This document shows positions 1,793 to 48,750 of a stretch of 64,000 bases of DNA, piece after piece. A model generated the notes under the pieces. The model saw nothing but the letters and a program-made list of their open reading frames with translations, was not told where the DNA came from and made no database searches. Every line of letters starts with the position of its first letter. Position 1 is the stretch's first letter. The translations under genes and the position numbers were made by a program. Origin of the DNA: a virus; IMG/VR virus record IMGVR_UViG_3300042373_001362, positions 32,001-96,000 of that record; one strand, given 5' to 3'.

Positions 1793-4700
1793 TAGATTCT
1801 CTCTCTTATTCTCTGCTCAGTAGTCTTTATCTTTGCCATTACCATGTTTGCTATCTCTTCAGGGTTGTTTTGTCCACCGTTTATATGGAAAGTAAACGAA
1901 TTTCCTCCTGATGTAACAGTAGCCTGAGTTGCTACACCCATTTGGTTAGAAGCTGGAGTCAATGTGTCGCCAAGTGCGCCTGGCCCTGGAACTGCATGAA
2001 GATGTCTACCCGCTCCACTTCCATGGAATTCGGCAAACCCACCAGCATTACGTGTTGCCACGGCGTAGGAACCAAGGTTTTGACCAACAAGGTCGATTGC
2101 CCTACCCGTTACATGGTCAGAGTTGAGTGAACCAAGACCATATGTTCTATACGAAGAGGTGATTGACCTCTTCCCAGGAATAGAGCTGTTAATAGCCTTG
2201 TGCCTATCCATTGTTTGGCTAAGTCGTGAAGAAGTGGTATCACCGACAACGCCACCACGAGGGGTTGTCGTGTCCGTCTGCATTATTTCTTTCATTGCTT
2301 CTTTTGACCACCACTCAGGTTTGGCTGCTTCTGGACCAAAAGCGGTACTCATATCTCTACTGAATTTTTCAACGGCCTCTTTAAACGTTGTTGATGCTGT
2401 TTTCATTTCTTTTGCAACAGCGTTTGTTTGGTCAGTATCTTGAGCACGAACTATAAGGCCAGCGTTTGTAACCCCATAATTAGCGAACTGTTGATTGAGA
2501 AGCATTCCCTGATAGTGTGCTTTGCTCTTGGCTCCTTTAGAGGTGTACAATTTCTTTGCTTCTGCGTCCGTCATGTTTGCAAACGGGTCCGTTATTTGGA
2601 AAATTCCACTTTCAACGTCGCTTAGGAATCTTTCTCTATTTTCAGCACTCATTTTAGAAATTGCTTCGTTCATCTTTGTAGTGTTGCCGTACCTCCCCAT
2701 TCCGCCAAGCATTCCCTGCACTTGAGCGCTAGCGTTGGATATGAGTCCTTTTTCGGTTTCTGTAGATGTTTTAGTGAGAGCCTCAGTAACTTCCGGTGTA
2801 AAAAAATCAGCTGGGTTAATATCAGCAAATGCGCCACCTGGCTTAAAAAGGTCACCAGGGTTAGCAAGTGTGCCTATCTGTCTCTGTTGGGCATAAAAAT
2901 CCGTTATCGGGTTGTCTGTCATTCCTATGGATGACTCTTGAAATGCCCTTAAAGCATTGAGTACAGATAATGTGTCTCCTCCACCCCTAATGGTGTCACC
3001 AAGCGCCGTACCTCTTTCGTCATATATTTCGGGCGCTTGAACTCTTTTTATTATTTCGTCAAAACCAGTAGCTATAGCAGAAAGCGATACGTCTATATTG
3101 GCCTCTTTCATTTCTTTTGCAGTTTTAACCATTGTTAAGCCAAGTTTTTCAACTATGTCAGAAGTCTTGAGTGTCGCGTCGTATAGGTCTACACCCATCT
3201 TCTTGGCAAGAACTTCTATTTCTGCTCCAGACTTTCCGCTCATGTCTTTGAGCAGCTCCATGCGTGCACCTTGCTGCTTGCTGATTGTGTCTGCTGCTTT
3301 AAGCCTTTCAGGAAGCTCTTTAGAAAGCTTTGTAAGTCCAGCGCCTTTGTCTTTGCTTATGGCTGCCATTTCTTCGGGCGTAATAATTCCTTTAAAGGCT
3401 GGGTCTTCGCTTATTTCTTTGAGTATCTTGTAATCTTTTTCTTGTTTTTTCTTTCTTTCACCTCTACCAAAAAGACCTTTTGTTAAACCTGTAATTCCTC
3501 CCACGACTCCACCGAGAACTGCACCAATACTTCCAAAGGTAGCTGCTGTTACTAAAGAGCCGATAGGTCCGCCGACGCTTCCCGCTATCGCGCCAGTCGC
3601 GACTCCAAGTCCTCCGCCTATTGCTGCGCCAGTACCCATGCCGCCCTTGGTTTGCTCCCATGTCGACTTTCCGTAGTCTCCGCTAAATCCTCGCTCTTTT
3701 AGTGCTTTGCTGAGGTTTCCGTAAGCTGCAGCAGTTTCTCCAGCTATCCCTTCATATGCTCCCGTGCGCCCAGTCATATCTACACCTGCAGCTGCATCTG
3801 CCTCTTGTCGAAGTACTTTGTCTTTGGCATTCATGATTTGACGAGTAGCTATGCCATCAAGAAATGAGCCCATCGCTTCTTTTGATTCTTTTGCTCTTTG
3901 TCTCATTCCTCCAGCAAAACCAGCAACTGCTCCAGTTATCGCACCAAGAGCTGCACCTACAGCAGTACCAATTCCTGGGGCAATCATTGTTCCAATTGCT
4001 GCACCCGCACCAGCACCGGTCATTGCTCCGCCTGCTGCCGTTCTAGAGTTAAGTGCTGCTCCACCGAGACCAACAGCAAGACCGGCTAGTGGGTTGAATT
4101 GACCAACCATTGCACCCATAGCCATTGCCCCCTGTGCTTCTGGTGCCATGTACTGAGACGCAACTCCCATGCCTAGGCCAACGCCCATTTTTGCACCCAT
4201 GCTTCTGTTAACTCCGCTAATACCTTTTTCATCGTTACCGAGAATTGCGGAACCAAGGGCGCTGTTTCTGCGTGAGCGTGAAGTGAGGCCTGCATATTTA
4301 ATTTTGTTTCTAAAGGTTTGACCTTTTGTGTCTACAAAACCTGTTTGTGCGTCATATCTAGCGCCCACCGTGGCTATTCTTTGACCTGTAACCGGGTCTA
4401 TCTTTCTACTTAAATTAAGCACTTCACCAGTAGATTCATCTAGTGTCGCAAATCGACGGCCAGTAATTTTTCCTCTAAATAAATCTTGACCAACTCCTGT
4501 ATTACCCTGTGCTTGTTGTCTTGAGCCATCGAATATGCGACCCAAAAAGCCTCTGCGGCTGTACGCGCCTTGCGTTCCTGGTCCGCCAGCACCAGGAGGA
4601 GCTGTTCCTGGACCTCCAGGACCGGGCATGCCACCGCCACCACCTGCGCCACCACCTGTTGCGCCGCTAGAAAATCTCGCTGCGTCAATTGGGGAACTAG

Positions 4701-21359: not shown

Positions 21360-23438
21360 ATGGCATGGAACGCTTCAACGAACAAGTCGCTGAATAATCA
21401 AGCACAAAAAGACATTGGACCTGGAGCACCAGTAGCCCAAAATCCTGGCTATGCAGGCAAGCCGTACAGGGACTCCTGGGATATTGAGCGTGCCTATAGA
21501 GAAGGCATGCAGAAGGTTACATGGGTGTCTAGGTGTATCGATGCCATTGCTGGAAACCAGGCAAGACTGCCGATAATACTCAGAAAAGACAACTCACCTA
21601 ATGGTGAAATTCTTTCAATCAGAGAGTCAAAAAAGACAAATCTTCTTAATATTCTAAACTCAAAGTCTAATGTTGGAGAAAACTCCTACATTTTTAGGTA
21701 CAGGCTTTCTGCTCAGCTGATGCTTGGTACTAGGGGTGCTTTTATTGAAAAAGTAAGAGGACGAGACGGCGGAATAATTGGCCTCAACCTATTACCTCCT
21801 CAGTCAACCTCCCCAATACCAGACCCTAAAAAGTTTGTTTCTGGCTACGAAGTTCAAATGCCCACAGGAAACAAGGTCTACCTGAAGCCAGAAGACGTTT
21901 GCTGGGTGAGAAGACCTCACCCAATCGACCCATACTTGTCACTGACCCCATTGGAGGCCTGTGGCGTTGCGATTGAAATAGAAAACCTGGCAAAGCTTTA
22001 CAACAGAAACTACCTATTAAACGACGGTAGACCGGGTGGTTTGCTTGTTCTTCGTGGAGAAATCGACGACGACGACAAAGAAGAATTGAGAAGCCGTTTC
22101 CGTGGAAACCTTTCACGCGCTGGATATACCTCTGTAATCGCTTCCGACGACGGTGTTGACTATGTTGACACTTCAGCAAACCCAAGAGACGCTGCGTACA
22201 TACAGATGCGGCAAATAACAAAGGAGGAAATCCTTGCTTCATTTGGTGTTCCAGAGTCGGTTATCGGTAATGCTGCTGGTAGAACTTTTAGCAACGCTTC
22301 GGAAGAAATTCGTGTCTTTTGGATGGAGACGATGCTTCCCCATTTGGAGATTCTTTCACGGGCTCTAGATGAACTAGATGAAGACAACTATGTTGACTTC
22401 AATGTTGACCAAGTGCCCATTTTGATGCTTTACGAGCAGGAGCGCCACCGCTACTTGATGGACGAATTCAACGCAGGTCTTATCAGCAATAACGAGTACA
22501 GAATAGGCTCAGGTCGCAAAGAAACAGAAAGCGACCTTGCTGACTCGCTCTTGGCTAATCCAAACCTTATTCCTATTGCAAATACGAAGAAGAAGATGGA
22601 AGAGCCTTCTCAAGCTCAGGTTCCAGGTGCACCAGGACAGCCTGGAATGCCCGGAATGCCCCCTGGGGCACCCGGAATGCCCCCAATGCCCGGAATGCCT
22701 CCAGCACCAGGACAACAGCCACCGCTCGACCCAAATACGATGGCTGGGGCAATGGCAGAAGTATCTGGAGCACAGCCAGGCGGAGAACTGGCGCAATCAC
22801 CAATTCCAGGAATGCCTCCAGGAATGATGACCGGAGCAGAGCCAGTACCTCCAGGTGCTACTTCTGCTGAGTCGCCAACCATAATGACAAAAGATGCTCT
22901 TGAAGCGATTTCCCAAAAGCAAGAAATCGAAAGATGGGAAGAGATACTTGTCAGAAGCATGGAAAGAGTCATGGAAAGACAGCAGCGTGTTGTTCTTGAG
23001 AAGTCAAGTGGAGCAAAAGCAAAGAAGGCTTTGTTTGCTGGAACCCTAGATATCCCATCCGTGCTTCACTCGGAGACATGGGACAGACAATTTGATGAAG
23101 ACATTAGGCCAGTAATTACAGCCATCGTCAAAGAGTCGTTGAAAGCATCTACATCAATCGAGAAAAAGTCCGCGAAAAGTTGGGAAGTAGAGTCTGACAT
23201 CATTGCTCAAGTCGATTCTCAAATGTTACGAATCAAGAGCTTGAACCAGGATTTGACAGAGGAAATTACTTCCCTCATGTTGTCTTCTCTGAATGTTTCT
23301 GACGAAGACCAGCGAGCTGGCGCTTTTAGGTCAAACATCGTGTCTTTGTATACAAATGTGTTGGCAAAACGGCTTCCGGAGATAGCTAGCGAGGAATCTA
23401 GGCGTGCCTGGACTTACGGAAAATTCATCGCTAGATAG
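21360..23438 (+). CDS. HK97-family portal protein with Pro/Gly/Met-rich linker and MuF-like C-terminal extension
   Basis: CIDAIA, LTPLEA, NDGRPGGLL, ILASFGVP, NEYR; C-terminal ERQQRVV...IASEESRRAW. Confidence 0.9.
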   Translation: MAWNASTNKSLNNQAQKDIGPGAPVAQNPGYAGKPYRDSWDIERAYREGMQKVTWVSRCIDAIAGNQARLPIILRKDNSPNGEILSIRESKKTNLLNILNSKSNVGENSYIFRYRLSAQLMLGTRGAFIEKVRGRDGGIIGLNLLPPQSTSPIPDPKKFVSGYEVQMPTGNKVYLKPEDVCWVRRPHPIDPYLSLTPLEACGVAIEIENLAKLYNRNYLLNDGRPGGLLVLRGEIDDDDKEELRSRFRGNLSRAGYTSVIASDDGVDYVDTSANPRDAAYIQMRQITKEEILASFGVPESVIGNAAGRTFSNASEEIRVFWMETMLPHLEILSRALDELDEDNYVDFNVDQVPILMLYEQERHRYLMDEFNAGLISNNEYRIGSGRKETESDLADSLLANPNLIPIANTKKKMEEPSQAQVPGAPGQPGMPGMPPGAPGMPPMPGMPPAPGQQPPLDPNTMAGAMAEVSGAQPGGELAQSPIPGMPPGMMTGAEPVPPGATSAESPTIMTKDALEAISQKQEIERWEEILVRSMERVMERQQRVVLEKSSGAKAKKALFAGTLDIPSVLHSETWDRQFDEDIRPVITAIVKESLKASTSIEKKSAKSWEVESDIIAQVDSQMLRIKSLNQDLTEEITSLMLSSLNVSDEDQRAGAFRSNIVSLYTNVLAKRLPEIASEESRRAWTYGKFIAR

Positions 23439-23536: not shown

Positions 23537-26500
23537 ATGTCCTCTTCTAATAAAAAATCCGACATTCAGTACAAGGCTGCACCGCAAGGAATGGTGAATT
23601 TAGACGAGGCCCAAGGCATCGTCGAATGTTTTGTCGCTGGGATAGGCAACAAAGACTCTGTTGGTGACGTTTGCGCACCAGGAGCTTTCGGCAAGAGCCT
23701 TACCAGAAGGAAGCCACGAGTCGTATGGGGACACAACTGGAACGACCCCATTGGCAAGGTCATCGATATGTACGAGGTTCCACCCAACGACCCTCGTTTG
23801 CCAGCAAAGATGAAGGCTGCAGGAATTGGCGGTCTTTATGCTCGCGTTCAATTCAACCTTATGTCGGAAAAGGGTCGTGAGGCGTTTGCCAATGTTGCTT
23901 TCTTTGGTGAAGAGCAAGAGTGGTCTATTGGTTACAAAACAATCAATGCAAAATTTGACCCACAGATGCAAGCAAACATTCTTTATGAAGTAGAGCTTTA
24001 TGAGGTGTCTCCAGTTCTTCATGGTGCAAACCAGTTGACAGGAACAATTTCAGTAAAGTCGGAAGAGCAGCCATCTGGCGTTTCAGTAATTAATGCACCA
24101 AGCATTGATGGATTAAACGTAAATGAGCTTTCTTCTATTCTTGATGCACTCAAGGCTATTTCTTCTTCCGTTTCAGAAGACGAAAAGTGTGGACCAGGAA
24201 TGATGCCACAGGGAATGCCAGGAATGCCTTCTGGTGGACCAGGCATGCCTTCTGGGCCAAAGCCAATGCATACACATACCCCTGGTGCAGCACCAAGAGA
24301 AGTTGTTAAGCCACAAATTCCATCCATGCCAGAAAACCCAATGACCGTAGCGCTTCGCCGCGAACTTGCGACTCGCACCGGCTCAAACGTAATCGTGCGT
24401 TCAGCAAGCGACAGTGTCGTTGTTTTTGACAGAGTGCTGGCTGACGGAACGTCAAGCACATACAGACTGCCTTTCCATTATGCCGGTGGAGAGTTTATGT
24501 TTGGCAAACCAGAAAAAGTTCAGTCTCAAGCAAACTACGTCCAAGATTCTCCTTTGTCTGAAATCATGGTTGAAGCGCTTCTTTCTGGCCCCACTGCAGG
24601 CGCAGAAAAGTCTTTAATCTCTTTTGATGACCAAGAGTGGGGTGAAGGATTTGGGCAATCAATTCCGTCACAGCAAGTTGATGCTTCAACTTTGAATAGC
24701 GTTATCGCTAATCTTCAAAAAATAATCGAGCAGAAATCTGAATATGTTGTTCAAGTTGCTCCAGAACATGCTTTTGAAGTAAAGCAAGCGATAGACCCAA
24801 TTCTTGATTTCTACAAGGTTGACGCAACCATCAATGAAGATGGAATTGTTGTTAAGTCACTCAATGAAGACTTTTTGAACGCTCTTGACATCGCCACAAA
24901 AGGCGTATTACGCAGTCTTGGCAACCTTGCGGGTAGAGCAATAGACCGCCCTAATATTGGCAGAAACAGAAGAGACAGAACACCCAACCTTGCATCACGA
25001 GGCCCTGGAATTGGTTCACGAGGAGCGGTAGTAAGACTCCGTGATGGAAGCATGTGGGACCCAAAAAACGCACCGGATAGAAACCGTAATGGCATTGTAG
25101 GTGAAGGCCTCTTTGACAGTAGCGGAAGGTCGTTGGCACAGCCAGACCCAACACCAGAGGGGCCAGATTCTATCCGGGGAGCAAAGACACCAAAGTCACC
25201 GCAGACCCCTAAAAGGCAAGCAGCGGCTGCCGCAAAAAGAAACGCTACTGTAAAAAGAACTTCTGGGCAGCCCCAGAAAGCAAGGCAGCGTCTTTCTTCA
25301 GGCGGAATTGACCAAGAAGTTGACGATACACCAATGCTTGAGGAGAAGTTCAAGAAGGAAGTCTCTGGCTTTTTGTCTGAAATAGGAACAAACCGTAATG
25401 AGATAGAAAACATTCTTGACCTGTGGGAAAACAACGATGCAGACCATGACAAGTACATGGAAGAGCATGGAGCTGGTTCAAAAAACTTTGCTGAAAACGT
25501 GGCTTATGCAGCGTCAGCAATGTACGAAGACTACATCTCTGATGCGGGAGATAGGCAGGCTGACCGTCGTGCCGAGGGAGGGCGTTTCTCGTCTGGCGAG
25601 TGGACAAAAATTCCTGGTGTTGGCTATGAGATGGATGCCCCAGACATCGAAGGTGCTTACGAAATCCAAGAAGGCCTTGATGGGAAGTTCTATGTAGTTA
25701 GATTCTCTGATGGCAACCGCAACGGTGGTCAGGACATGACCGAATACGAACATGACAAGCCTTTCTCTACTCTTGCAGCAGCAAAGAAGTGGGCTGAAAA
25801 AGACTATGCACAAGCAGCGGACGAGTACATGCCAGATGAAGAAATGCCAGATGGTGATGCATCCGAAAGACTGAATAGCCTTGTTGCTCCAGAACTACCA
25901 AGCCTTGACGGCATGGACGAGTCTGAAGCAGATGAAGCCTTGCAAAACTTTAGTGACGAAATGTTCAGCTTTGTTAACGAGACAGAGAACATTGCCAGAG
26001 AAGTACTAGGTGACGACGAATACAACAAGAGATTTGGCGGAGCAGTGCCCCTCATTGAAGAGATTTCAAAGAGGCACGATGGAAGCATTGAGCAGCGTGA
26101 TATTGCTCTAGAAAATGCCTTTGACCAAGCAGAGAGGTTTAACAACTCTGTTAACGGTTCACTTGGCGGCGGAAGATTCTCTTCTGGTCAAATCGACTTC
26201 GACAAGATAGGTGAATCAGGTCTCAGGGAAATGCGCCATGTTGAGCGCAACCCTCTTAGATTTGATACACAGGCAGACAAAGATGCACGCGCTGCGTACG
26301 AACGGGTTGTAGCAAACTTTAGAGCAAACAACGGTTTCTTCCGTGAAGTGCCCATGTATGCAGGTGATAAAAAGTGGCACAGCGAAGACTGGTTCCGTGG
26401 CCGCGAGATGGCAGAAAACGTTGCCACCTTGCGATTTGGCGACCCGATTGACCAAATGCCGTTCTTCGATAAACCAGGAAAGCCATCAAAAAGAGAATTC

Positions 26501-37033: not shown

Positions 37034-40000
37034 ATGACGGGTACGTTTAAAACGAAAACAAGATTTTATACCTCTTCGCAATTTGTGACCCCTATTTCAG
37101 GGCGCAAGCATTTCGTTGACTCCGCTATTGATTTCAGGCGAGGCCTTATTGAGAACTCATCAATGGCCGTTCTTAATGCCGATATCGCTGTTAAGGCTGC
37201 AATGGGAGCAGGGCTCTCTTCGTCTTCTGCTTCTGTCGGTCAAAAAGCACAGGGCGGCACATCTCCCGATTCTGACGGCAAAAAGCGCGTCAACAAAGGT
37301 GGCGTTCCTGGAATGGAAGAAGACGCCAACGGCTATAGGTACATGCCTGAAGCAACATGGGGTCCAGATAAGGTCCTAAATCTTTTTCCATCTCAAGAGA
37401 ATAGACAGTCAACAGACAGAACTCCAAACTTTGGATTCATCGACAAGGGTCCAGTCATCACTCCAGAACAATACGTTCAAAAAATGGAGAACGAACCACG
37501 AATCAGGATGTCCAAATACAAAATCAACTCTAGAACTGGTGAGCCTATAGAGGACACTGAAGTTGAATTTGACCGAATGAGATTCGGAAAAACTTTTGAT
37601 ATCAATCCAGATGTATCTGATGAAATATCTGAATCAGTTTCAGAAGAAATACAGGAAAAAAGTTTAGGAAGAAGTCTTAAAGAAAGAATGCCCGGCGGAA
37701 GCCTTATCGGAAGAGCTGCTGCTCGATTTGGCGTAATTATGGATGAACTTGGGAAGATGAGATGTCCTCCAGGAACTCCAGCCGCAAACCAATTTACCGA
37801 CATGACGGGTTCAAACTGTTTTGGCACATCGCCAGGAACGTTGATATCCGAAGCAATAAACCTTGCTCAAAACCTTGTTCCAGAAGACGATTCAAGACGT
37901 TCCTCTCGCCTCACAAGAGGCATTGTGAATCTTATGTTCGACTTAGAAAACGGTTTGTTTGGCAACAACGTCTGGTATCACGCAGACGGAACAAGAATGA
38001 AGCACGGCGAGTGGCGCAAGTTTCGCGAAGCTGGTGGTGTAGCAAAAAATGAACGCTGGATGGTCAATGGTGTTGAGAGAGTACTTGCCGAATTGGACTC
38101 TCAAGATGCACGAATGGAAGACCTTTATAGCAAGCTTGGCATAGACGTAAGCGATGTCAGAAAAGCAACAAACGAAGATGTATTTGAAGCTTTTCAAAAA
38201 CTCAAAGATTCAGGTGTAATTAGAGCTCAGCTTAGGGGTAGGCCATCGGCGGCTCAAGTTGAGGCGATGATGACTGCTCGCTTGCAAAACATGGACGCCC
38301 ACTGGATAGCAAGAAGCGCTGAAGAAAGAAAAATACTACTTGATATCGAGGTTAAGCGGTATAGGGAGCTAGAGAGAGCCCACATGGAGGCTTTTCTAGA
38401 TGAGGTTATTAAAAACCCAGAGCACATGAAAACTATCGGTGACGTCACTTTTAACCCAGCCGGAAGAGACCGCGCATCGTTTGGGATATCTAGGATAGGC
38501 CCAGATGGCAAGCCAGTTGGCTCTATAAATATAGACATACCGATGTCGCTCAAGTTTCAGGACTCAATGTTGCCAAATCTTTCTCCAGATGAGAGGCTAC
38601 GCATTTGGGCCGAAGGTGGACAGTCTGAAGTTTTGAGAGCAATGGCTGTTAAAGATTTCCTTGTTAATTCTAACTCTCATGCTGGACAGATGATAGCGAT
38701 GGTTGATGGTGGTCGTGGCCTTGGTCGACACGACATGAAACACGAAATAGCCCACTCAATCCAAGCCGTTGCGATATTCAACCATATGAAGAGAGAGCTA
38801 GACGCACGTGGCTCGCTCGTTATAGACAATGGAGAAAACAAAGCGCCCACCGTAATAACGGACGTAAGTCAACTTAACTCTGACATGCTTATGGCGTTGA
38901 TGGCTAGAGAAAACTTTATGGGCATTGACCTCAACTCACTAAAAGACCTCAGGTCTAGAGGTGACGTTGTTGCTTTTCTCGCTGGAAAATATATTGACGA
39001 AGTGCAGGCTCAATACGGAGGCATGAGAAGAGCGGCAGAAATAGGTGCAGAATTATGGTCACTCCGCAGTTCTGGTTTAATTTATGGCGATGACGTTGAT
39101 GCGGCTCTTGAATATATGGATGATGTTGCTTCTGGGGCGATTACAATTGATAGGACAGTTTCGGACGAAATTTTAAACAGAAGAGTTTATGAAGAATACC
39201 TCGATGGCTCCCGAAGGATACGCGAAGCCAGGGAGGAATCCGAGAGGCTCGCTGAAGAGGCTGAAGACGGGGAGTTTTTTGACGCGGAAGGAAGGGCGTC
39301 TGCCGAAAGGCTTTCTGCTGCCAGAGAAGCATACGCAGCAGAAAAACGCGCAGAAGTAAAAGAAGTAAAAGAAGCAGCAAAAACAATGTCTGAAGAAGAC
39401 ATGATTGACTTCCTCGCCGATGCGACAGAATCTTCTGATGTTCTGACAGAAATGCTTGATTCAGTAGAAGAAGCAGGTGAGGAACCTGACTGGATGTCTG
39501 TCATGGACAGAGACACTCTAGATGCAATGTCAAAAGCGGTTGTTGATGAATGGGTAAAAAGGTTTACCGTAAGAAGAAGCCCTGAGGCTATGGAAAAGCT
39601 TCAGAAAATGATTGACGACAAGCGTGAATCAAAAGGAACACTTTCTCCAGAAAAGGTTGAAGAGCGAAGATTTAGACAGTTCATGGAAGGTGCTGCTGAG
39701 CGGGCACAAGAAATGGGCCTAGAAGACCTTGTTCAGGCATACTCTGACTGGGAAGAGCTCGCTACTGGAGAAGGCGTTGATGGCGTCGACAGGGCACGCA
39801 GAAAAGAAATGCGTGATATGTACAGGGACGAGTACATAAAGAGAAGAACAGAAGGTCCTGACTCTGTTTCCAAAGAAGACGCACGCAAAGAATTCAACTC
39901 AAAGTTTAAGACACTTCGCAAGCCAAAGACAACGGCTGCTCGCGAAAGAGAAAAAAGAGCAAATCCGAAGAAGTTTAAAACTCATAACGGTAAAGATGGA

Positions 40001-43000
40001 GCACGAACTTTTGCTACCGCAGAAAGAGAAAGACTTCTCGAAGGTGCAACAACAGAAGAAAAAATTGCTCTTGTCGAAATGGGAAGCGGTGAAACTGACG
40101 TAATCAACATGATGAATGGCAGTTCCGAAGGAATGGCATCTGCTAGAGCTATCCAGAGAAGAAACACCAGACTTAAGAAAAATGGAGTTCTTCCTGATGA
40201 ATTAAATCATCATGAGGCGTCAATAGAAGAACAGGTAGAAAACTTCTACATACCACTTCTTGAATTGATGGACAAGTCCTCCCTGTCTCAAACTGTAGAA
40301 ATGCACATCGACAGCAATGATGATGCTATGAAGTACGTGGAAGACCTTCTTAATGGCGGAAGTCCAGAATTCACTGTCGGTATTGGAACCGGAACACTGG
40401 TTACAAGCAATACAGACTTTTCAGACGGCAAAAAGATAGTTATCCGCGTCCCAGAGGGAAGTAGGGCTGTTTTCCCGGACTGGTCTTTTTATTCTGACTC
40501 CGACAACGGTGAGCAGAAAATGATGATTCCACCGTCAAAGTTTCACCTTGTTGAAATTCGGGATGACGGAACAGTCGTTCTTGAGGTTGGAGAACAAAAA
40601 GGAACCGAAGAAGTTCTCAAAGATGCGATAGAGGAGATATCCCCTAGCGCTGGTGACAGTGACTTTGCATACAGAGAAGGCCTCAAGAAGAAGGTTGGCA
40701 GGGTAGTCGACAAGAGAATTGCGGAGCGTCGCAGACAGGGTATGTTTGACCCAGAAAAGCGTTCTCCAGTTGAAGAAGAAAGATTCTCTGCTAGTGCAGA
40801 CAACGCTGCTGCTGCTGCCGGTTTTGAACCAGACCTTCCACCAAGGCCAACCACTCCACCGCCAACAGGCGATTCACCCAACAAGCAGAGAGGAGTGAAA
40901 AGAAGACAGGCTTCAGCTGCGATTGACCGCGTAGTAAATCCAAACAATAGAACTGAAGACTCATGGCAGAAGGAAAGAAGAGCTAGACAAGAGCTGGATG
41001 CAATACACGCATACATAACCGGTGAAGGCGCATATCAAAATAGAACCAATCGAGTCGGTCGTAAAATAGCTCAAATGATGGAAGAAGCCTTCGGCACATC
41101 AAACATAAACGAACTAACCGAAGACCAAAAGTACGACTTAATTGATTTAATTTCTCAAAGATTAGATGCCAAGCTAAGAATAGACAACAACGGCTCTTAT
41201 GACGACAGAAGAAGCTTATCGCAATTCAAAAGCAGAATTCAAGACCACATTGACATTTCAAAAATGCTTGATTCAAATGACTTTAGCGACCCATATGGCA
41301 GCGATGGCTATGACATCGATTGGTCATCAATAGACACAACGCCTGATAGGCCTGAAAGATTCTCTTCCGGAGCCAAATGGGGGCAGATGCCTTCTAGCAA
41401 CGAACAAATAGATGGTCTTCTTGATGCATCAAACAATGATGGATTTAATGAGATTTATGGTTCACCACAAACTCGTGAAGAGCGAATTGCTCAGATGGTT
41501 GAAATGCAATCCGAAGTTCTCACTTCATTGAGAGAAATGATTGACAATGTTCCCGGCTCTGGAGACGAATTAGGACTTGAAGCCTCAAGCATTGACCCAG
41601 TAATCATGGACCTCATCAAGAACTCATCCGACGAAGAGATATATCAGATTATTTCAAAGGCCGCTATGGACTTGCATCAAAGTTTTGACTCACGACCACG
41701 TGTACGAATGAGACAAGATGAGCTTGATAACTTCCTGAAGACTGGAAGATACGGAAGAGAGTCTTCTTTTGATACCGATGCCAATAGATTTTCTTCAGGC
41801 AGGATAAGCAAAGGCATCAGGGCTAGAGCCAAAGATAAAGCAATAGAAATGATTGCTGAAAGAATTGGCAAAGATGAGGACTCACGTGAAATAGCAGAGA
41901 TGGTCCTAGACACTGTTTCTGCTCTTAAGTACGGCCCAGAAGCCGCCCTGACGCGCTTGGCGATAGACCTCGGAAGACGAGGAAGCCGAGATATTGCTGA
42001 AAGAACATTAGAAGAACTTGTTAGTAGAGGGAAACTCACAGACGAGCAAGCGAAATCTATATTGTCAAAAATGGACAGGTTTGCCCCAGACGGTCTTCCA
42101 GAACCAATCAAGAGAGGCGTCGGTTCGGCTGTTCGTGCCGCAGCAGACGCAATCGATACTCCAGAGAACAGAGAAAGACTGGACAGGGCTCGTGAAGCAG
42201 CAGGAGAAGCTGCAGGCAGAGCCAGGGAAGCTGTCGGTGAAGGTGCAAGAAACGTAGCCGAACGAGGTCGTGAGAGACTTAGAAGACTTAGGGAAAGAGA
42301 CGACAGAGGCGAAATTCCATCTTCTCCAGAAGATGTTCCATTTGGCGACTTTGACCCAGCGGATACAATTTTTTCAAGCGGCAGAAGACTCGACAGAAGA
42401 GTTGCTAGCTCGGAAGCTGGCCGTGAAAGAATCATGGATGGGGCAAAGAAGACCAGAACAAGATTCAGCAGCGGAGAGACGCCAGAACTTAAAGAGCCAA
42501 AGAAGCCAAGCAGGCCACGAGAGCCAGATAATGGCCCCATGACTGGAAAGTTCATCGACATCTTCAAGGGTGTTAAGTCATATAAAGAGATGCTCGATAG
42601 ATACAACGAGCAAGAAGTTATCTTCTTTGACTACGAGACAACTGGCTTTGACCCCAAAGTTGAAAGACCCGTTCAAATTGGTGCAGTAAAGATGAAGGGC
42701 GGAAAAGTTGTTGAAAGGTTCAATATCTTCGTAAACCCAGAAAAAGAACTTAGCGATTGGTCAAAAGCAAACCTCGTAGATGCTGACGGTAATCCACTAA
42801 CAAACGATTGGCTAAATAATCAGCCATCAATAGCAGAAGCACACCAACAACTTATTGATTTCTTTGGGCCTGATGCACTTCTTGGTGGACAGTTCACCCC
42901 GTTTGACCTTGGGTTCCTTGAAGAGTCACTCAAGAATGCCGGAATAGAATGGACTCCTGCTGGCGTTATTGACAGCAAGGCGCTTGCAGACGAGCTACTT

Positions 43001-46000
43001 CCAAAGTGGACACCAGAAACCGGCGATGGACCATTTGCTTTGAACGACGACGGCAGTAAATATGCTACTAACAGCCTTGGGCCCCTATCTGAGTACCTTG
43101 GCGTGGACCTCAAGGCATGGCATACGGCAGATGCTGACTCTGAGGCATCTGCAATGATTGTCCAGAAGATTCTTGAGCGTGCGGCCGAAAGAGACGACAC
43201 TCCAAAGCATCTGCTAAAAGTTGAAAACATGCCTGCAATCGTCAACGAGCGTAGAGCAAAGCACAAGTTGGCAATGGATAAGTACTTTGCTGACATGAAG
43301 CAGTACAAGGCAGACATGGAAGCCTATAACGCTTCTAAATCTGACTCAGGAGGCGGAACAAGATTCTCTTCCGGCGGGAAAGCCGACCCCATGGTCATCA
43401 AGACAAATGGTCGATACGGCGACACCAGCGGAAAGAGCGATTTTAGCTCAGATGAGCTAAAGACAATAGACGAAATAACCGAGCGTCTATCCAACTCTGA
43501 TTTGAATCTGGCGTGGTTTTCGTTAGAGAACGAAGACGGAACAGCCACATCTTCGCCATTGATTAACTTTAACGGCAGGCCAATAGCTGTTGTTCGTATT
43601 GGAGAACAGAACATACCGTTTTATAGAAGTACCGGAAGTGGCGGCAAAGACCCAAGCAGGTTTGTTCCAAACAAATGGTATCCATTCTGGGGGTATAACG
43701 CGTCTGGTCAGTGGTTTATAAAAAACGAAGAAATGGAAAACTATTACGGGATACCAGAGCTGGAAGAAATATCTAAACAACTGGACACCCTTACGGATGG
43801 TCTTCCAAAGTTAAAGGCATCAACAGAGTGGCGTAGCGTCGCAAACATAGAGACCGGCCAAATGGATGATGATTTTAGAGGTTTAATAAATGGAACTGCA
43901 TTTAGAAATGCTGACTCGCTTTATAACAGACGTGACATAACAAATCACATTACTGTATCTAAGAAAAAGACGAGAGACGAAATAAAGTTAATGAAGAGAG
44001 ATGCCTTAAAGGCCTCAAGAGATGGCAATACTCCTCCAGGGGTTGATAGGTTCTCTTCTGGAGAAACATATAGAGAACTGGTTAGAACTGAAGGAAGGCC
44101 ATCAGAAAAGCAAAAAGAAGCAATTTCTGATGTTAAGGACATTCTAAGAAATAACGAGTTTGGCATTGCTGACGAGTTTGACGATGAATACGAAGTAGTA
44201 GACAGTCCAAGAAGGGCTGAACTGAAGGCGAAAGTTGCTGAAAAGATTTCAGAAGCTTTCTCTCACGACATAGAAGCAAGAGAAGATGTCGTTGTTACCG
44301 CTAAGAATGGCGAAAAAATAAACCTAGGAAAAGATTTCAAGATTGAAATAAGCGAAATATCTGTAGATGTTGACACTTATGACGAAGAAACTTTAGAAGC
44401 AATCAAAGAGCAACAGTTTTACGATACTCCTACTGGCTCAATGAGCGACTCCCCAAGCACTTTAATATCGATGAAGATATCAATAAAGCCAAAAGACGAG
44501 GAAGCAGCAAAGCGCCTTGAGCAGGCAGGTATCCCGGAGCTTCTATTGCCAGACTATTTTGACGGAACCCCAGGGGCCGACGATGTAAGGGTTGGATTCT
44601 CATCAAGAAACTTAGTAATAAATGGCAACGAAATGCATGCAACGCATGAGTCACTATTCCTCAGGGATGAAGCTCAAGGGAAAGGCATAGGAAGTCTATT
44701 CAACGCTAAGAATGAAGGAGTCTATGAAGAGCTTGGCGTTAGAAGAATCCTCACCAACGGTCAATCCTCTGAACTTGGAGAATCTGAAGGTGGAACACAT
44801 TGGCCAAGAAATGGTTTTACGTGGGCCGGAGAACAGAGCAAACAGGACTTTATTAAGGTTATAGACCGAGCCCTGAAGAGAAGAAAGAGCAAATTCTCTG
44901 AAGAAGAATACGCAAGAATAAGTTCTTTATATAGAAAGAACCCCTCAACTAGGAAGTTCGAAACAGACGCATCAGCAGAAGAGCTTGTCGATTTTGCTTA
45001 TGCAGATGAACTGTTTAAAGAACAGGATGCAAGCTTCATGTTTAAGCGCGACATTGAGCTCGTATCTGCCGGTAGTCCGAGATTCTCTTCAGGTGGAACA
45101 AGGTTCTCTTCTGGGGCGTCTGGAGCAGCAAGAGCTGGAATAAACAGAGATATATATGAAAGAGAAGGGGGCAGACCCTCGGACAAGCTGGAGCCATCAT
45201 CTTTGTTAAGAAAATCATCAGACGGAAAAGACTCTTCTGCTCTAGAAATAAATGGCAAAACATATGACATTAAGTCACTCAAAAACGAAGACGGAAACTT
45301 TTCTGTATTTATAGAAAATGAAGACGGTAAAAAAATTGCTGAGATTGTTTTAAACCAGGAGCCAACATCTTATGCATCTATAGTTTCAATATCATCGGAA
45401 GAAGATGCACAAAAAGCTGGAGCGCTAGAAGGAATTTTAGACTCTTTGTTAATAAATAATCCTGACGCAACGTTTAGGAAAACAGAAAAAACAGCAGAAT
45501 GGTTCAACTACGTAACCAATGGCATGGCTGACTATGGGCTTCAGGGAAGCAGACAGGTTGGTTTCTCCGGAAAGTTCAGCGATGGAGAAAGAGCTACACC
45601 CGATGGCGACTATACGTTAAGTTCGTTTTTAAGATTTAAGCCGAAAAGAAATTCATCTAAAACGCTAAAATCCGATAAAAATTCTTTTTCAGAGTATTCA
45701 TATAAGTGGAACGGGGAAATATTTGATATCGGAGGAGAGTCATTAGTATTTGGCGCACCTGAAGATGCGGAATTTGAAGATAGTTCTATAAAAAAGATAA
45801 ATCTGAATCCATTTGAAATACTGGGTCTTGAGCCAACTTCAGAAGAAGGCAGAGATGCTGCCATGAAATGGATGTCAGCAATACACGGCGCATCAATATC
45901 CATAATATCTGACGGTCAAGAATTTAAACCTAGCACCTATGTTAGTGCTCTTCTTTACGCCTCTTCAAAGGGGGATAAGAAAGCAGCAGAAGAATTAGAC

Positions 46001-47506
46001 GCATTGGCAAAACGTTCAAGTGATTGGCTTGCAAAGCTAAAAGAAAAAGAACAAAAGATTGAAGAAACTGGAAATGCTTTGCCGCTCAATTCTAGGCTTG
46101 TTCACCAAACGTCATACAAGCCAACAATAGATAAAGACGGATATCTAGTCCTTCGACCACTAGAGGACTTTCCACAAAAATCGAACGATGGCTCTGACGT
46201 AACTGTTAACAGAACAACGCTGCATTTAGCAATCAATCACCTTGCAGAAGGTCATATGTTTAGGCAGGAAACACAAGGTAAGTCTTACATTGTAATGATG
46301 CCTCTTGACTCTTTTATGGACCAAAACCCAGATAGCCTCGAAAATCTTTCAATAGTTGACACTGCAGCAACACCCCCACCAGGAGATGGCTTGCGCATGG
46401 CTCCAGGAACATTCAAAGTTATAGAGGTCGATGAGGGCGGGAATGGTCGAAGGATGGTTGAAGATGCTCTCAGAGAAGATGGCGTAGGCGTTCTAGTCGG
46501 TGGTGACAGGTCTTCCGGAACTCCAGGAGCAGATAAAGCAGCCGAAGCTAGGGCGCGGATGCTTGGAGTGTCTAATAACGTTGCGTCTGACCTGCCGTTA
46601 ACAGTGTTTGAAACTATTAACAGGACAAGCATATATGAGCAGTCTCGCTATGCCGATGTTCCTGCAACTACCGAAATTATGCAAACTGCTAGCAAAAATA
46701 CACTCATGAGAATGGCCAACAGAAGAGAAAACGCATGGACAGCATTTGATAAAGAAGTAGTAGCAACAGACTTTTTGTCTAGCGGTGAAGTAAAAGCCCC
46801 AGCAGAACCAAGAACACGGAAGCCAAAGCGAGTAAAGAAGTATAAGGGCTACGACCTTAACGAGCCAGACAATCCGGCTCCTAAGCCGGGAGAATTCCCT
46901 GATGATGTTGTTGAGGCTGCAACAAAACATAGGGCAGAGATTGAAAAGGTAGAAGCGGAAATAACAAAGCTTCTCATTGACTTGGCCGAAAAGAATAAAG
47001 CCCGTATGGAAGGTCTTGATTTTAGGCTTAAAGCTCTGAAGTCACTAATGCGCAAGATAGCTGCAGAAAAAGACAGCGAGCATGGTGGAGACGCAGAAAA
47101 AGCAGCGAAGTCCATGTCTGATGTTGTTAGGTACACGATGTCCTACGGCCCAGAAGATTACGTTGCTGGCGTAAAAGACGTTGTAGCAGAAATGCAGAAA
47201 CTTGGGTATGACCTTAGAATTAAGAACTACTGGAAGGGCGGCGACCCATACCAGGGAATCAACGTTGCCGTAACACACCCCGATGGAACAAAGTTTGAAC
47301 TGCAATTCCATACTCCACAATCTGTGGCTGAGAAAGAAAAAATTCACGTAATGTATGAGGAGTACAGAACATCAAAAGACCCAGGTCAGAGATGGGAGTT
47401 GTACCAGCGGATGGTTGAAATAGCTAACCAAATAGGTGTACCTATTCCACCAGAAGAACTGCTAACTATCGGCCAAGTGAAAGAACAGCCATTCCAGGCG
47501 GAGTAA
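37034..47506 (+). CDS. giant polyprotein 2: zincin, ART-like, DEDDh exonuclease, GNAT, RelA/SpoT-type C-terminal domain
   Basis: Continuous 3490-aa ORF with AAGGA RBS; nine xFSSG/xLSSG delimiters. Confidence 0.9.
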   Translation: MTGTFKTKTRFYTSSQFVTPISGRKHFVDSAIDFRRGLIENSSMAVLNADIAVKAAMGAGLSSSSASVGQKAQGGTSPDSDGKKRVNKGGVPGMEEDANGYRYMPEATWGPDKVLNLFPSQENRQSTDRTPNFGFIDKGPVITPEQYVQKMENEPRIRMSKYKINSRTGEPIEDTEVEFDRMRFGKTFDINPDVSDEISESVSEEIQEKSLGRSLKERMPGGSLIGRAAARFGVIMDELGKMRCPPGTPAANQFTDMTGSNCFGTSPGTLISEAINLAQNLVPEDDSRRSSRLTRGIVNLMFDLENGLFGNNVWYHADGTRMKHGEWRKFREAGGVAKNERWMVNGVERVLAELDSQDARMEDLYSKLGIDVSDVRKATNEDVFEAFQKLKDSGVIRAQLRGRPSAAQVEAMMTARLQNMDAHWIARSAEERKILLDIEVKRYRELERAHMEAFLDEVIKNPEHMKTIGDVTFNPAGRDRASFGISRIGPDGKPVGSINIDIPMSLKFQDSMLPNLSPDERLRIWAEGGQSEVLRAMAVKDFLVNSNSHAGQMIAMVDGGRGLGRHDMKHEIAHSIQAVAIFNHMKRELDARGSLVIDNGENKAPTVITDVSQLNSDMLMALMARENFMGIDLNSLKDLRSRGDVVAFLAGKYIDEVQAQYGGMRRAAEIGAELWSLRSSGLIYGDDVDAALEYMDDVASGAITIDRTVSDEILNRRVYEEYLDGSRRIREAREESERLAEEAEDGEFFDAEGRASAERLSAAREAYAAEKRAEVKEVKEAAKTMSEEDMIDFLADATESSDVLTEMLDSVEEAGEEPDWMSVMDRDTLDAMSKAVVDEWVKRFTVRRSPEAMEKLQKMIDDKRESKGTLSPEKVEERRFRQFMEGAAERAQEMGLEDLVQAYSDWEELATGEGVDGVDRARRKEMRDMYRDEYIKRRTEGPDSVSKEDARKEFNSKFKTLRKPKTTAAREREKRANPKKFKTHNGKDGARTFATAERERLLEGATTEEKIALVEMGSGETDVINMMNGSSEGMASARAIQRRNTRLKKNGVLPDELNHHEASIEEQVENFYIPLLELMDKSSLSQTVEMHIDSNDDAMKYVEDLLNGGSPEFTVGIGTGTLVTSNTDFSDGKKIVIRVPEGSRAVFPDWSFYSDSDNGEQKMMIPPSKFHLVEIRDDGTVVLEVGEQKGTEEVLKDAIEEISPSAGDSDFAYREGLKKKVGRVVDKRIAERRRQGMFDPEKRSPVEEERFSASADNAAAAAGFEPDLPPRPTTPPPTGDSPNKQRGVKRRQASAAIDRVVNPNNRTEDSWQKERRARQELDAIHAYITGEGAYQNRTNRVGRKIAQMMEEAFGTSNINELTEDQKYDLIDLISQRLDAKLRIDNNGSYDDRRSLSQFKSRIQDHIDISKMLDSNDFSDPYGSDGYDIDWSSIDTTPDRPERFSSGAKWGQMPSSNEQIDGLLDASNNDGFNEIYGSPQTREERIAQMVEMQSEVLTSLREMIDNVPGSGDELGLEASSIDPVIMDLIKNSSDEEIYQIISKAAMDLHQSFDSRPRVRMRQDELDNFLKTGRYGRESSFDTDANRFSSGRISKGIRARAKDKAIEMIAERIGKDEDSREIAEMVLDTVSALKYGPEAALTRLAIDLGRRGSRDIAERTLEELVSRGKLTDEQAKSILSKMDRFAPDGLPEPIKRGVGSAVRAAADAIDTPENRERLDRAREAAGEAAGRAREAVGEGARNVAERGRERLRRLRERDDRGEIPSSPEDVPFGDFDPADTIFSSGRRLDRRVASSEAGRERIMDGAKKTRTRFSSGETPELKEPKKPSRPREPDNGPMTGKFIDIFKGVKSYKEMLDRYNEQEVIFFDYETTGFDPKVERPVQIGAVKMKGGKVVERFNIFVNPEKELSDWSKANLVDADGNPLTNDWLNNQPSIAEAHQQLIDFFGPDALLGGQFTPFDLGFLEESLKNAGIEWTPAGVIDSKALADELLPKWTPETGDGPFALNDDGSKYATNSLGPLSEYLGVDLKAWHTADADSEASAMIVQKILERAAERDDTPKHLLKVENMPAIVNERRAKHKLAMDKYFADMKQYKADMEAYNASKSDSGGGTRFSSGGKADPMVIKTNGRYGDTSGKSDFSSDELKTIDEITERLSNSDLNLAWFSLENEDGTATSSPLINFNGRPIAVVRIGEQNIPFYRSTGSGGKDPSRFVPNKWYPFWGYNASGQWFIKNEEMENYYGIPELEEISKQLDTLTDGLPKLKASTEWRSVANIETGQMDDDFRGLINGTAFRNADSLYNRRDITNHITVSKKKTRDEIKLMKRDALKASRDGNTPPGVDRFSSGETYRELVRTEGRPSEKQKEAISDVKDILRNNEFGIADEFDDEYEVVDSPRRAELKAKVAEKISEAFSHDIEAREDVVVTAKNGEKINLGKDFKIEISEISVDVDTYDEETLEAIKEQQFYDTPTGSMSDSPSTLISMKISIKPKDEEAAKRLEQAGIPELLLPDYFDGTPGADDVRVGFSSRNLVINGNEMHATHESLFLRDEAQGKGIGSLFNAKNEGVYEELGVRRILTNGQSSELGESEGGTHWPRNGFTWAGEQSKQDFIKVIDRALKRRKSKFSEEEYARISSLYRKNPSTRKFETDASAEELVDFAYADELFKEQDASFMFKRDIELVSAGSPRFSSGGTRFSSGASGAARAGINRDIYEREGGRPSDKLEPSSLLRKSSDGKDSSALEINGKTYDIKSLKNEDGNFSVFIENEDGKKIAEIVLNQEPTSYASIVSISSEEDAQKAGALEGILDSLLINNPDATFRKTEKTAEWFNYVTNGMADYGLQGSRQVGFSGKFSDGERATPDGDYTLSSFLRFKPKRNSSKTLKSDKNSFSEYSYKWNGEIFDIGGESLVFGAPEDAEFEDSSIKKINLNPFEILGLEPTSEEGRDAAMKWMSAIHGASISIISDGQEFKPSTYVSALLYASSKGDKKAAEELDALAKRSSDWLAKLKEKEQKIEETGNALPLNSRLVHQTSYKPTIDKDGYLVLRPLEDFPQKSNDGSDVTVNRTTLHLAINHLAEGHMFRQETQGKSYIVMMPLDSFMDQNPDSLENLSIVDTAATPPPGDGLRMAPGTFKVIEVDEGGNGRRMVEDALREDGVGVLVGGDRSSGTPGADKAAEARARMLGVSNNVASDLPLTVFETINRTSIYEQSRYADVPATTEIMQTASKNTLMRMANRRENAWTAFDKEVVATDFLSSGEVKAPAEPRTRKPKRVKKYKGYDLNEPDNPAPKPGEFPDDVVEAATKHRAEIEKVEAEITKLLIDLAEKNKARMEGLDFRLKALKSLMRKIAAEKDSEHGGDAEKAAKSMSDVVRYTMSYGPEDYVAGVKDVVAEMQKLGYDLRIKNYWKGGDPYQGINVAVTHPDGTKFELQFHTPQSVAEKEKIHVMYEEYRTSKDPGQRWELYQRMVEIANQIGVPIPPEELLTIGQVKEQPFQAE
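38400..39130 (+). other. zincin-like metallopeptidase domain
   Basis: HEIAH at 38741-38755 and downstream AAEIGAEL. Confidence 0.55.
42617..43180 (+). other. DEDDh (DnaQ-like) 3'-5' exonuclease domain
   Basis: FFDYETTG, QIGAV, PFDLGFL, IDSK, WHTADAD. Confidence 0.88.
44630..44830 (+). other. GNAT acetyltransferase-like core
   Basis: LFLRDEAQGKGIG (acetyl-CoA motif A) ... GGTHWPRNGF. Confidence 0.7.
46880..47503 (+). other. RelA/SpoT-type nucleotidyltransferase (toxic alarmone synthetase-like)
   Basis: RLKALKSLMRKI, DVVRYT, KNYW, YQGIN, FELQFHTPQS. Confidence 0.85.
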
Positions 47507-47507
47507 A

Positions 47508-47747
47508 ATGAAGAAAAGATTTTTCACAAAAGGTAAGAACACCAAATTATTCGTTCTTTTTATTGACGATGCAAAAAAAGAGATGTACGAGTATGTCTTG
47601 ACAGAGGATGGACTAGAAGAGACATCAGACCTTATGAAAATAATGATTGATGGGTTTCAGGGCATAGAAGAAATAAGCGAACAGAAGGCATCAGAACTTT
47701 ATAAAGACAAAGGCTTTAAAAAAGCCATGAATAGCCTTGGTAAGTAA
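47508..47747 (+). CDS. candidate immunity protein for the RelA/SpoT-type domain
   Basis: 79 aa, starts 1 nt after the toxin-like C-terminus; EEISEQKA near the end. Confidence 0.55.
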   Translation: MKKRFFTKGKNTKLFVLFIDDAKKEMYEYVLTEDGLEETSDLMKIMIDGFQGIEEISEQKASELYKDKGFKKAMNSLGK

Positions 47748-47748
47748 A

Positions 47749-48750
47749 ATGAGCGAAGAATCTACAAAAAAGATTGCCGACGTAGCAAGAAGAGCCTATG
47801 AAACACGCATTGGCATACAGCCAGACGTCGACGACTCTGCCAGGCCTGTTAGTGGCTATTTGGTCAATAGGTCACAGGACACAAAAAGAAGAGCAATGGC
47901 AAAACTGGAAAATCCAGAAGGAGCTACTGCCCCGTTTGAGACAGTAGAAGGAGACCCGTCTGGCACCGACGCTATATCTCAGGGAGAAATAGAGATAATT
48001 CTTAAGCCTGGCGTTGCCAAGAAAACCTCCTACACTCGCGGCGATGCTGTGTCTACCGGCGGAAGGGCCGTAGCAATGAACTCCGACGCGCAAGAAGACA
48101 TACTTAATGCGATAATCCACGATGATGGACCAAATGCCAAAAAGACAATGGCCAGGACGATGATTGGTCTTCTAAAATCGTCTCTAGACGAAGATTATAC
48201 AGGGGTTACTTCTCTCCCTGATAATGCAGGAAGACTTACGCCTGTAGACAAAGAAGACCCGTCTGCATCGCAAAGAAAAAATGAGTCGTTTGAAGCAATG
48301 ATTCTAGGTGGGTTTGAAATAGACGATGTTGAGGGTGTTCATTTCCCTTACTCAAAAATCAAACAAATAGCTGAAGATGAAGATATTTCTGACTTCTTCA
48401 ACAACAACTTTGTTATGTCTCGCCTAAAAACTCTCAACAATAACGCTGAACAAGCAAGGGTTTTTTCAACCCTTGAATCAGCGGACAAGATAAGAACGGA
48501 ATCTGTAGTCGCTCTCAAGGAATATAGGGCAGCAAAGCGCATTAAGAAAATGTACGAATCTGGAGGGGTTGGATATGTGAAGATATCTCACCCAAAGGGA
48601 GTCAACATAGAAGACCCAAGGACGTATGACAGAAACGCATCTCCTCTTGACAATGTTGAATCAATACTAAAAGCAAAGATAGCCAAAGAACTGGATTCAG
48701 AAATTCAGAAAATATTTAACAAAAAGCCTGGAATGAAGAAGGAAAAGTAA
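47749..48750 (+). CDS. DUF3626-like protein (apparently degenerate)
   Basis: RRAYETRIG..RPVSGYL..GEIEIILKP..TSYTRGD..FEAMILGG..DDV. Confidence 0.5.
   Translation: MSEESTKKIADVARRAYETRIGIQPDVDDSARPVSGYLVNRSQDTKRRAMAKLENPEGATAPFETVEGDPSGTDAISQGEIEIILKPGVAKKTSYTRGDAVSTGGRAVAMNSDAQEDILNAIIHDDGPNAKKTMARTMIGLLKSSLDEDYTGVTSLPDNAGRLTPVDKEDPSASQRKNESFEAMILGGFEIDDVEGVHFPYSKIKQIAEDEDISDFFNNNFVMSRLKTLNNNAEQARVFSTLESADKIRTESVVALKEYRAAKRIKKMYESGGVGYVKISHPKGVNIEDPRTYDRNASPLDNVESILKAKIAKELDSEIQKIFNKKPGMKKEK

Follow-up and report, generated by a model that had tools for sequence, protein, structure and literature searches.

We analysed a 64,000-nucleotide stretch of viral DNA (positions 32,001 to 96,000 of the IMG/VR record IMGVR_UViG_3300042373_001362; hereafter the window, in whose positions all coordinates are given) and found that the last 239 residues of a 3490-residue head-operon polyprotein (37034..47506, + strand) form a RelA/SpoT-homologue synthetase module of the Apk/EAS clade (46787..47503, +; identified by sequence, profile, and structural model), which is linked to a candidate immunity gene, small79 (47508..47747, +; an open reading frame of 79 residues, 9.2 kDa). 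Judged from its sequence, the module is a toxin-type nucleotide pyrophosphokinase of the clade that holds Apk2, SaEAS, and Tas1, with its catalytic Asp and Glu intact. Enzymes of this clade very rapidly transfer pyrophosphate from ATP to the 3'-hydroxyl of adenine nucleotides, guanine nucleotides, or both, thereby depleting ATP and filling the cell with (p)ppApp or (p)ppGpp. Toxins of the alarmone-synthetase kind occur among type VI secretion system effectors, in toxin-antitoxin modules, and on the MuF proteins of temperate phages. Our comparisons established the homology of the module, the conservation of its catalytic residues, its fold, its motif-set boundaries, and its linkage to the small gene, and we consider it probable, for the explanation as a whole, that the pair represents a packaged, protease-freed alarmone-synthetase toxin together with its 79-residue cognate inhibitor.

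The C-terminal synthetase module

The module starts at 46787 with the first codon past FLSSG (46772..46786, +; residues 3247-3251), which is the last inter-module motif of the polyprotein and its presumed proteolytic boundary, and it spans residues 3252-3490, of which the N-terminal ~40 form a basic linker (isoelectric point 9.1). Five conserved stretches, all on the + strand, follow: (i) syn1, RxKxxxSxxxK (FRLKALKSLMRK, residue 3330; 47021..47056), in which R80, K82, and K90 of the module are invariant; (ii) syn2, SDVVRYT (residue 3362; 47117..47137), in which D3363 corresponds to the catalytic D121 of SaEAS and R3366 to its R124, and which contains the Apk signature RYT; (iii) syn3, YQGINV (residue 3406; 47249..47266), which carries the GxN signature with an invariant N3410 corresponding to SaEAS N169; (iv) syn4, ELQFHT (residue 3422; 47297..47314), whose invariant E3422 and Q3424 correspond to SaEAS E182 and Q184; and (v) a syn5-like stretch, IHVMYEEYR (47342..47368), with H187, Y190, and Y193 of the module invariant. 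Residue invariance was read throughout from our alignment A7. An initial annotation, made from the letters alone, had described a RelA/SpoT-type motif set after FLSSG at the polyprotein C-terminus, with a 79-residue gene 1 nt past the stop, and had likened the module to phage Apk2-type synthetases. The syn1, SDVVRYT, YQGINV, and ELQFHT motifs are all present there; the stop (TAA, 47504-47506) and the following start (ATG, 47508) are exactly as described; and the Apk2-type likeness is confirmed by homology as well as by the syn2, syn3, and syn4 signatures RYT, GxN, and (F/Y)H.

The resemblance of the module to known enzymes is, at the level of sequence, far beyond chance. In a phmmer search of all PDB sequences, the module matched SaEAS (PDB 8vx3) with an E-value of 2.4e-16, and a profile built from eight family members found SaEAS (E 4.4e-24), Tas1 (6ox6_A; E 6e-4), and nothing further; no canonical Rel or small alarmone synthetase (SAS) enzyme, and no tRNA-targeting enzyme, was matched in these PDB sequence searches. 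BLASTP aligned the module with the MuF-fused Apk2 of the S. pneumoniae prophage IPP32 at 34% identity (E 2e-26). Among the PHROG families, phrog_2859, phrog_7625, and phrog_2841 align to the module through their C-terminal parts, and two of the three are annotated as head morphogenesis or minor head protein. Among the NCBIfam models, the module matched the C-terminal part of the XopAD/skwp effector model.

An AlphaFold2 model of the module (mean predicted local distance difference test, pLDDT, 84.3) superimposes on 8vx3 with template modelling (TM) scores of 0.70/0.81 and a root-mean-square deviation (rmsd) of 2.2 Å. Its top Foldseek matches were 8vx3, 6ox6_A, RelP, RelQ, and CapRel, each with a probability of 1.00, and SaEAS ranked first and Tas1 second. 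The alanine of the crystallised D121A mutant of SaEAS aligns beneath D3363, with the offset in SaEAS numbering checked via its L83M mutation. Further, the residues to which roles have been assigned in SaEAS, including the ATP-binding R124, N169, E182, and Q184 (PMC12691689), correspond to R3366, N3410, E3422, and Q3424 of the polyprotein and are identical in the two proteins. The RYT, GxN, and (Y/F)H signatures divide adenosine from guanosine 3'-pyrophosphokinases (PMC12226406); the module contains RYT, GIN, and FH, where FH takes the place of YH, as it does in SaEAS.

Among characterised systems, the nearest in arrangement are the Apk2-IapK-Aph1 modules, which are MuF polymorphic toxins of temperate phages of S. 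pneumoniae, Mannheimia, Pasteurella, and Bacteroides caccae; there, the product of Apk2 is exclusively (p)ppApp, made from ATP, its expression is toxic, and its gene is followed by iapK, encoding a binding inhibitor, and by aph1, encoding an HD pyrophosphohydrolase (PMC12226406). As in Apk2, the homologous toxin domain in the window is the C-terminal unit of a head-operon protein encoded just past the portal region. Within the PDB, the nearest relative of the module in both sequence and solved structure is SaEAS from Streptomyces albidoflavus (8vx3), which shares the catalytic Asp and the ATP-binding residues. Unlike SaEAS, which is a Sec-exported, stand-alone enzyme without an immunity gene (PMC12691689), the module lacks a signal peptide context and has a linked small gene. 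Tas1 (Apk1), the second-closest solved synthetase, is inhibited by Tis1 (6ox6), and the window would share with this pair the logic of a delivered toxin and a small binding inhibitor. However, Tas1-Tis1 belongs to type VI secretion, whereas the window has no PAAR domain or type VI system, similarity to the Tis1 sequence is undetectable, and delivery would be by phage ejection. The window also differs from toxSAS toxin-antitoxin systems in that its synthetase is the end of a 3490-residue protein and not a stand-alone gene; a toxSAS-like arrangement, namely a stand-alone 257-residue relative with a small gene behind it, occurs on a metagenome contig (L098).

The module also matched 84 records labelled as Ralstonia phage. 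We rejected these matches as phage head proteins: the one examined (L108:42-3329, in a record labelled Ralstonia phage YO188_1) is an open reading frame for a 1095-residue protein with two tandem synthetase domains of the same clade. Because the module resembles the C-terminal part of the XopAD/skwp type III effector, the Ralstonia matches are probably effector genes in mislabelled or prophage-like records. A scan of IMG/VR with the module as a single-sequence pattern gave no matches, and neither did a megablast comparison of 20 kb of the region with 50,697 phage records.

The linked 79-residue protein

A GGAG ribosome-binding site (47500..47503, +) lies within the last polyprotein codons, 4 nt before the ATG of small79 at 47508, and the gene overlaps the next one by 11 nt. 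The spacing matches that of phage IPP32, where position 3109 is the last of apk2 and 3111 the first of iapK (L001); in relatives of the window, carrier and small gene are separated by 2 nt or overlap by 4 nt. The family to which the protein belongs has 79-89 residues and no Pfam domain, and NCBIfam yielded no match for the 79-residue protein itself.

To follow the pair, relatives were gathered via alignments of the polyprotein core and of the 337-residue protein encoded by the next gene, and the whole records were then searched for the module and the small gene. The small gene was found in eight of the ten module-bearing records, the other two being short fragments that end before its expected place, and in none of the 42 module-less records, including eight genomes rated at least 90% complete. 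In the tree of the polyprotein core, the module-bearing records fall into four independent clades, all four of which have the small gene, gains or losses of the one coinciding with those of the other. Three layouts occur. In layout (a), found in the window, L002, L003, and L013, the module is terminal, the small gene adjoins it, and the 337-residue protein has a gene of its own; in layout (b), the module is internal and is joined through SLASG to a homologue of the 337-residue protein, and the small gene is found 32-35 kb further downstream (at L015:4044-4295, for example), within a region that includes SSB, SLT lysozyme, thioredoxin, and TauD genes; in layout (c), module and small gene are both absent. 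The word AGCCCCG is nearly absent from the stretches with the remote small gene and gave no answer as to an early arm. In the sister clade of the window's own group (L109), the polyprotein ends with the module that is penultimate in the window and is directly followed by the 337-residue gene, so that both the module and the small gene are lacking. A 66-residue open reading frame behind the module-less polyprotein of L109 was rejected as spurious, being in another frame over the next gene and no relative of the small gene.

An exhaustive profile search with the small-protein family returned 30 proteins, among which two large matches (P0090 and P0102) were discarded as repeat artefacts. In three other settings, distant members directly follow synthetases with 42-46% identity to the module, namely (i) the stand-alone 257-residue synthetase of L098, (ii) a carrier of at least 832 residues (L102), and (iii) a 1170-residue ADP-ribosyltransferase-synthetase protein (L105) of a phage with a separate MuF gene upstream. 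The pair thus travels through four phage lineages and three carrier proteins, and the 79-residue protein is therefore very probably the inhibitor of the module. The small adjacent candidate immunity gene of the initial annotation accordingly gains support from strict co-occurrence, from adjacency in unrelated carriers, and from the weak similarity to IapK and Tis1 described below. As to L105 itself, the 1170-residue protein (L105:1489-5909) combines an ADPrib_exo_Tox domain with the C-terminal synthetase module (46% identity), and the next protein has 302 residues, of which the first 77 form the small-protein domain and the remaining ~225 an extension that looks acetyltransferase-like by eye.

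The AlphaFold2 model of the 79-residue protein (pLDDT 90.6) consists, in order, of four strands, one helix, another strand, and a final pair of helices. An exhaustive structural aligner placed Tis1 (6ox6_B, 76 residues) second among 48,161 PDB chains, with a Z-score of 4.1 and an rmsd of 3.5 Å over 60 of 76 residues; because Tis1 and IapK had been named as targets beforehand, we give this rank more weight than the modest Z-score. The only PHROG match of the protein was phrog_3514 (E 0.012, nearly full length; two further members match it weakly), which is the family to which IapK of phage IPP32 belongs (E 6e-37). Moreover, hhalign aligned the small-protein family with IapK over the C-terminal 35 columns (probability 71%, E 3.6e-5). 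Unlike IapK in its own setting, the small protein lies ~35 kb from the module in one clade, and it is at best a remote relative of IapK, with which BLASTP gave no alignment. Hidden Markov model profiles of the small-protein family and of IapK, searched against PDB sequences, returned chance matches only and no relation to Tis1. An Atlas feature search listed the Tis1_ImmP cluster at rank 21 only (score 0.81), which we treat as a lead.

The carrier polyprotein and its genome

The carrier consists of a conserved N-terminal core of ~1440 residues followed by nine cargo segments split by the motif [FL]SSG, which cuts the protein into the 1446-residue core and segments of 143, 194, 31, 300, 229, 344, 7, 557, and 239 residues. 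The motif occurs nine times in the carrier against 0.18 expected (p 5e-13), and 15 times in the neighbouring 3963-residue polyprotein against 0.16 expected (p 1e-24). The last [FLM][SA]SG precedes RYT by 102-125 residues in 23 of 31 homologous polyproteins; in the clade in which the module is internal, the motif follows RYT by 122-143 residues, which is close to the point at which the protein of the window ends (125 residues past RYT). From these separator positions across homologues, we conclude that the motif marks true module boundaries. A 1703-residue open reading frame elsewhere in the window (1792-6903, - strand) contains two such motifs (KLSSG and RFSSG), and the separator is therefore not confined to the two giant head proteins.

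The record is the complete genome, 148,355 bp with direct terminal repeats, of an uncultured phage. The genes run in the order of portal (21360-23438), 3963-residue protein, 516-residue protein, 3490-residue carrier, small79, 337-residue protein, and structural-looking genes, with the portal, the S78-headed polyprotein, and the carrier in one operon. At its N-terminus, the 3963-residue polyprotein has a Peptidase_S78 prohead protease domain (23618..24049, +; PF04586, E 3.4e-9, residues 46-189), and it also holds UvrD helicase, ArdC-N, and MPTase-PolyVal domains; this S78 protease is a candidate, by its domain assignment, for the enzyme that cuts at [FL]SSG. Unlike the Apk2 carriers, that of the window is a multi-module [FL]SSG polyprotein, and it is accompanied by neither MuF, nor an Aph1-type hydrolase, nor an integrase. 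We found no MuF domain (PF04233) in the carrier at E ≤ 1 or in a six-frame translation of the whole 148-kb genome, which upholds the proposal of a non-MuF carrier; likewise, no Aph1-type HD hydrolase (HD_4) was found anywhere in the 148-kb genome, and no integrase was detected in it.

RNase_T was the only Pfam domain of the carrier above the cut-off. It identifies a DnaQ/RNase_T-type 3'-5' exonuclease module (42620-43156, residues 1863-2041; E 3e-16), which occupies one motif-delimited segment. The core contains an HExxH sequence (HEIAH, 38741-38755, residues 570-574) that, together with a His four residues upstream, is invariant in five cores of 34-77% identity; no Pfam family matched this region, and the conserved core may possibly contain a zincin-type metallopeptidase at HEIAH.

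In combining unrelated enzymatic domains in one giant protein beside virion genes, the carrier resembles the polyvalent proteins described by Iyer et al. (2017; PMC5512222). It joins an RNase_T exonuclease and a synthetase in one open reading frame near portal and prohead-protease genes, and the neighbouring polyprotein likewise carries ArdC-N and MPTase-PolyVal. Candidates for a processing peptidase would be MPTase-PolyVal and Peptidase_S78 on the neighbouring polyprotein and the invariant HExxH in the carrier core. RelA/SpoT domains were listed in 2017 among the domains of polyvalent proteins and on MuF proteins (PMC5512222). The carrier differs from those proteins in its over-represented separator motif, in the prohead serine protease fused to its sister polyprotein, and in the dedicated immunity gene for one of its modules, none of which is mentioned for RelA/SpoT-bearing polyvalent proteins in the passages of PMC5512222 that a term search returned.

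The 337-residue protein (47737..48750, +), encoded by the gene past small79, is 35% identical to the C-terminal module of P0026 (E 3e-62). It is free-standing in the window, whereas in sister clades its homologue continues the polyprotein in frame, past the synthetase module and an SLASG motif. It had no Pfam or PHROG match, and an Atlas search was uninformative.

Many relatives have a ParB/sulfiredoxin-like module (DGHNR/DGHHR) directly before the synthetase; this is the case in L002, L003, and L004, and the same arrangement recurs in the proteins P0014, P0016, P0018, P0021, and P0024-P0033. The clade with an internal module has no separator between the ParB/sulfiredoxin-like and synthetase modules, and the pairing is also seen in a 5246-residue protein with MuF and GNAT domains (P0033). 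The carrier of the window is without the ParB/sulfiredoxin-like module.

Proposed mechanism and alternatives

In the explanation that we favour, the 3490-residue polyprotein would be built into the procapsid and cut at [FL]SSG, most likely by the S78 prohead protease of the neighbouring polyprotein, and a cut past FLSSG would free an enzyme of ~27 kDa. The freed enzyme would be ejected with the DNA into the next host, where it would perturb nucleotide pools during takeover. The 79-residue gene, which is probably translationally coupled to the carrier, would encode a Tis1/IapK-like inhibitor that binds the synthetase and protects the ATP pool of the producing cell against freshly synthesised polyprotein; in layout (b), where the inhibitor gene is remote, its product may in addition inactivate the enzyme after injection. 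All of these steps are inferred, from the nucleotide product and its toxicity, through binding by the small protein, to cleavage, packaging, and injection.

Several observations weigh against this explanation. With regard to the enzyme, Pfam RelA_SpoT (PF04607) matches the module over profile positions 2-109 of 113 with only 18.4 bits (E 0.0026), below the cut-off of 27. Moreover, SaEAS, with the same signatures, produces both alarmones, and (p)ppGpp is the sole product of other EAS enzymes (PMC12691689), so the product is not readable from the motifs of the module. With regard to the small protein, its fold likeness to Tis1 is weak (Z 4.1, rmsd 3.5 Å), Foldseek found no PDB match for its model at E ≤ 0.001, and Pfam Tis1_ImmP matched none of 17 small-protein members or three IapKs. 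A sign test over the four independent pairs gave p 0.125, the lowest value attainable. One small-protein relative (L103:1069-1296) has no synthetase nearby, and several other distant relatives are on contigs too short to judge. The L103 relative, whose upstream neighbour is a 137-residue gene and whose surroundings include a trypsin-like protease and a UvrD helicase, could be an orphaned immunity gene; otherwise, it points to a second function. Finally, the inhibitor gene of the window belongs to a late operon, so early neutralisation of an injected enzyme would, in this layout, require co-packaging of the inhibitor.

That the synthetase is real but is not injected, and instead acts late in the producing cell with the small protein as a timing regulator, is an improbable alternative; the enzyme might, for example, turn off the metabolism of the host or exclude a superinfecting competitor. 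The expression of the gene with the late head genes and the probable translational coupling of the inhibitor gene within the same late operon would both suit such a role, and packaging and ejection are steps of prediction in the explanation that we favour. However, a late cytoplasmic role needs no fusion to a head polyprotein, and the module shares its polyprotein with many other, unrelated cargo units set between protease-type motifs, beside the portal and a prohead-protease-headed polyprotein. Further, its closest phage relatives are on MuF head proteins, and polyvalent proteins near virion genes have been interpreted as injected (PMC5512222). It is equally improbable, in our estimate, that the small gene encodes something other than an inhibitor, be it a cassette hitch-hiker, a chaperone of the module, or an adaptor for its packaging. 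While the likenesses to Tis1 and IapK in fold and profile are weak, co-occurrence by itself is silent on the kind of partnership, and the distant relative in L103 lacks a synthetase neighbour, both hitch-hiking and an adaptor role are argued against by the persistence of the pair at a distance of ~35 kb, with the small gene in a non-structural block, and by its recurrence with the stand-alone, non-packaged-looking 257-residue synthetase. Moreover, the sole structural and profile leads for the small protein point to Tis1 and IapK, the two immunity proteins already known for this enzyme clade.

Less probable still is the reading of the module as a tRNA 3'-CCA pyrophosphokinase like CapRel, FaRel2, or PhRel2, which would halt translation instead of making alarmones. 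The RelA/SpoT-homologue fold is common to both kinds of enzyme, CapRel and FaRel2 ranked 8 and 41, respectively, in our fold search, and alarmone synthesis by the module is a prediction. However, the PDB sequence and profile searches yielded only SaEAS and Tas1, leaving CapRel and FaRel2 unmatched even at E 10; the TM score to CapRel was 0.41, against 0.70 to SaEAS; and the motif signatures are those of adenosine 3'-pyrophosphokinases.

Returning to the proposed packaged toxin and its cognate inhibitor, two sets of features were not found in PMC12226406 or PMC5512222, as far as these were read, or in the libraries searched: (i) a motif-punctuated carrier without MuF, in a genome without Aph1 or an integrase, and (ii) a so far unnamed small-protein family, outside the Pfam and NCBIfam models, that tracks the enzyme across carriers and is relocated in one clade. 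This family would be a new family of small inhibitors for the Apk/EAS clade, which could aid the purification of enzymes that are otherwise too toxic, and the motif-delimited boundaries define an exact cloning unit. In addition, closely related phages of ~150 kb with and without the module, and with the inhibitor gene either coupled to the toxin or ~35 kb away from it, amount to natural experiments.

As no integrase was detected, the phage is probably virulent. The logic of phage-borne polymorphic toxins and their immunity proteins would reach beyond MuF carriers and, probably, beyond temperate phages. A bolder extension, which we regard as possible but on the whole doubtful, is that a protease-released (p)ppApp/(p)ppGpp synthetase, injected from the capsid, crashes the nucleotide economy of the host during takeover, with the genomic position of its antidote setting the timing. 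The late, coupled antidote of the window would then serve as self-protection during assembly, the antidote among early/middle replication genes in the other clade would act as a timed off-switch, and the polyprotein, as a platform with swappable cassettes, would work like a polymorphic toxin system without MuF. If this is true, the injected toxin and the phage-encoded antitoxin would together constitute a takeover timer.

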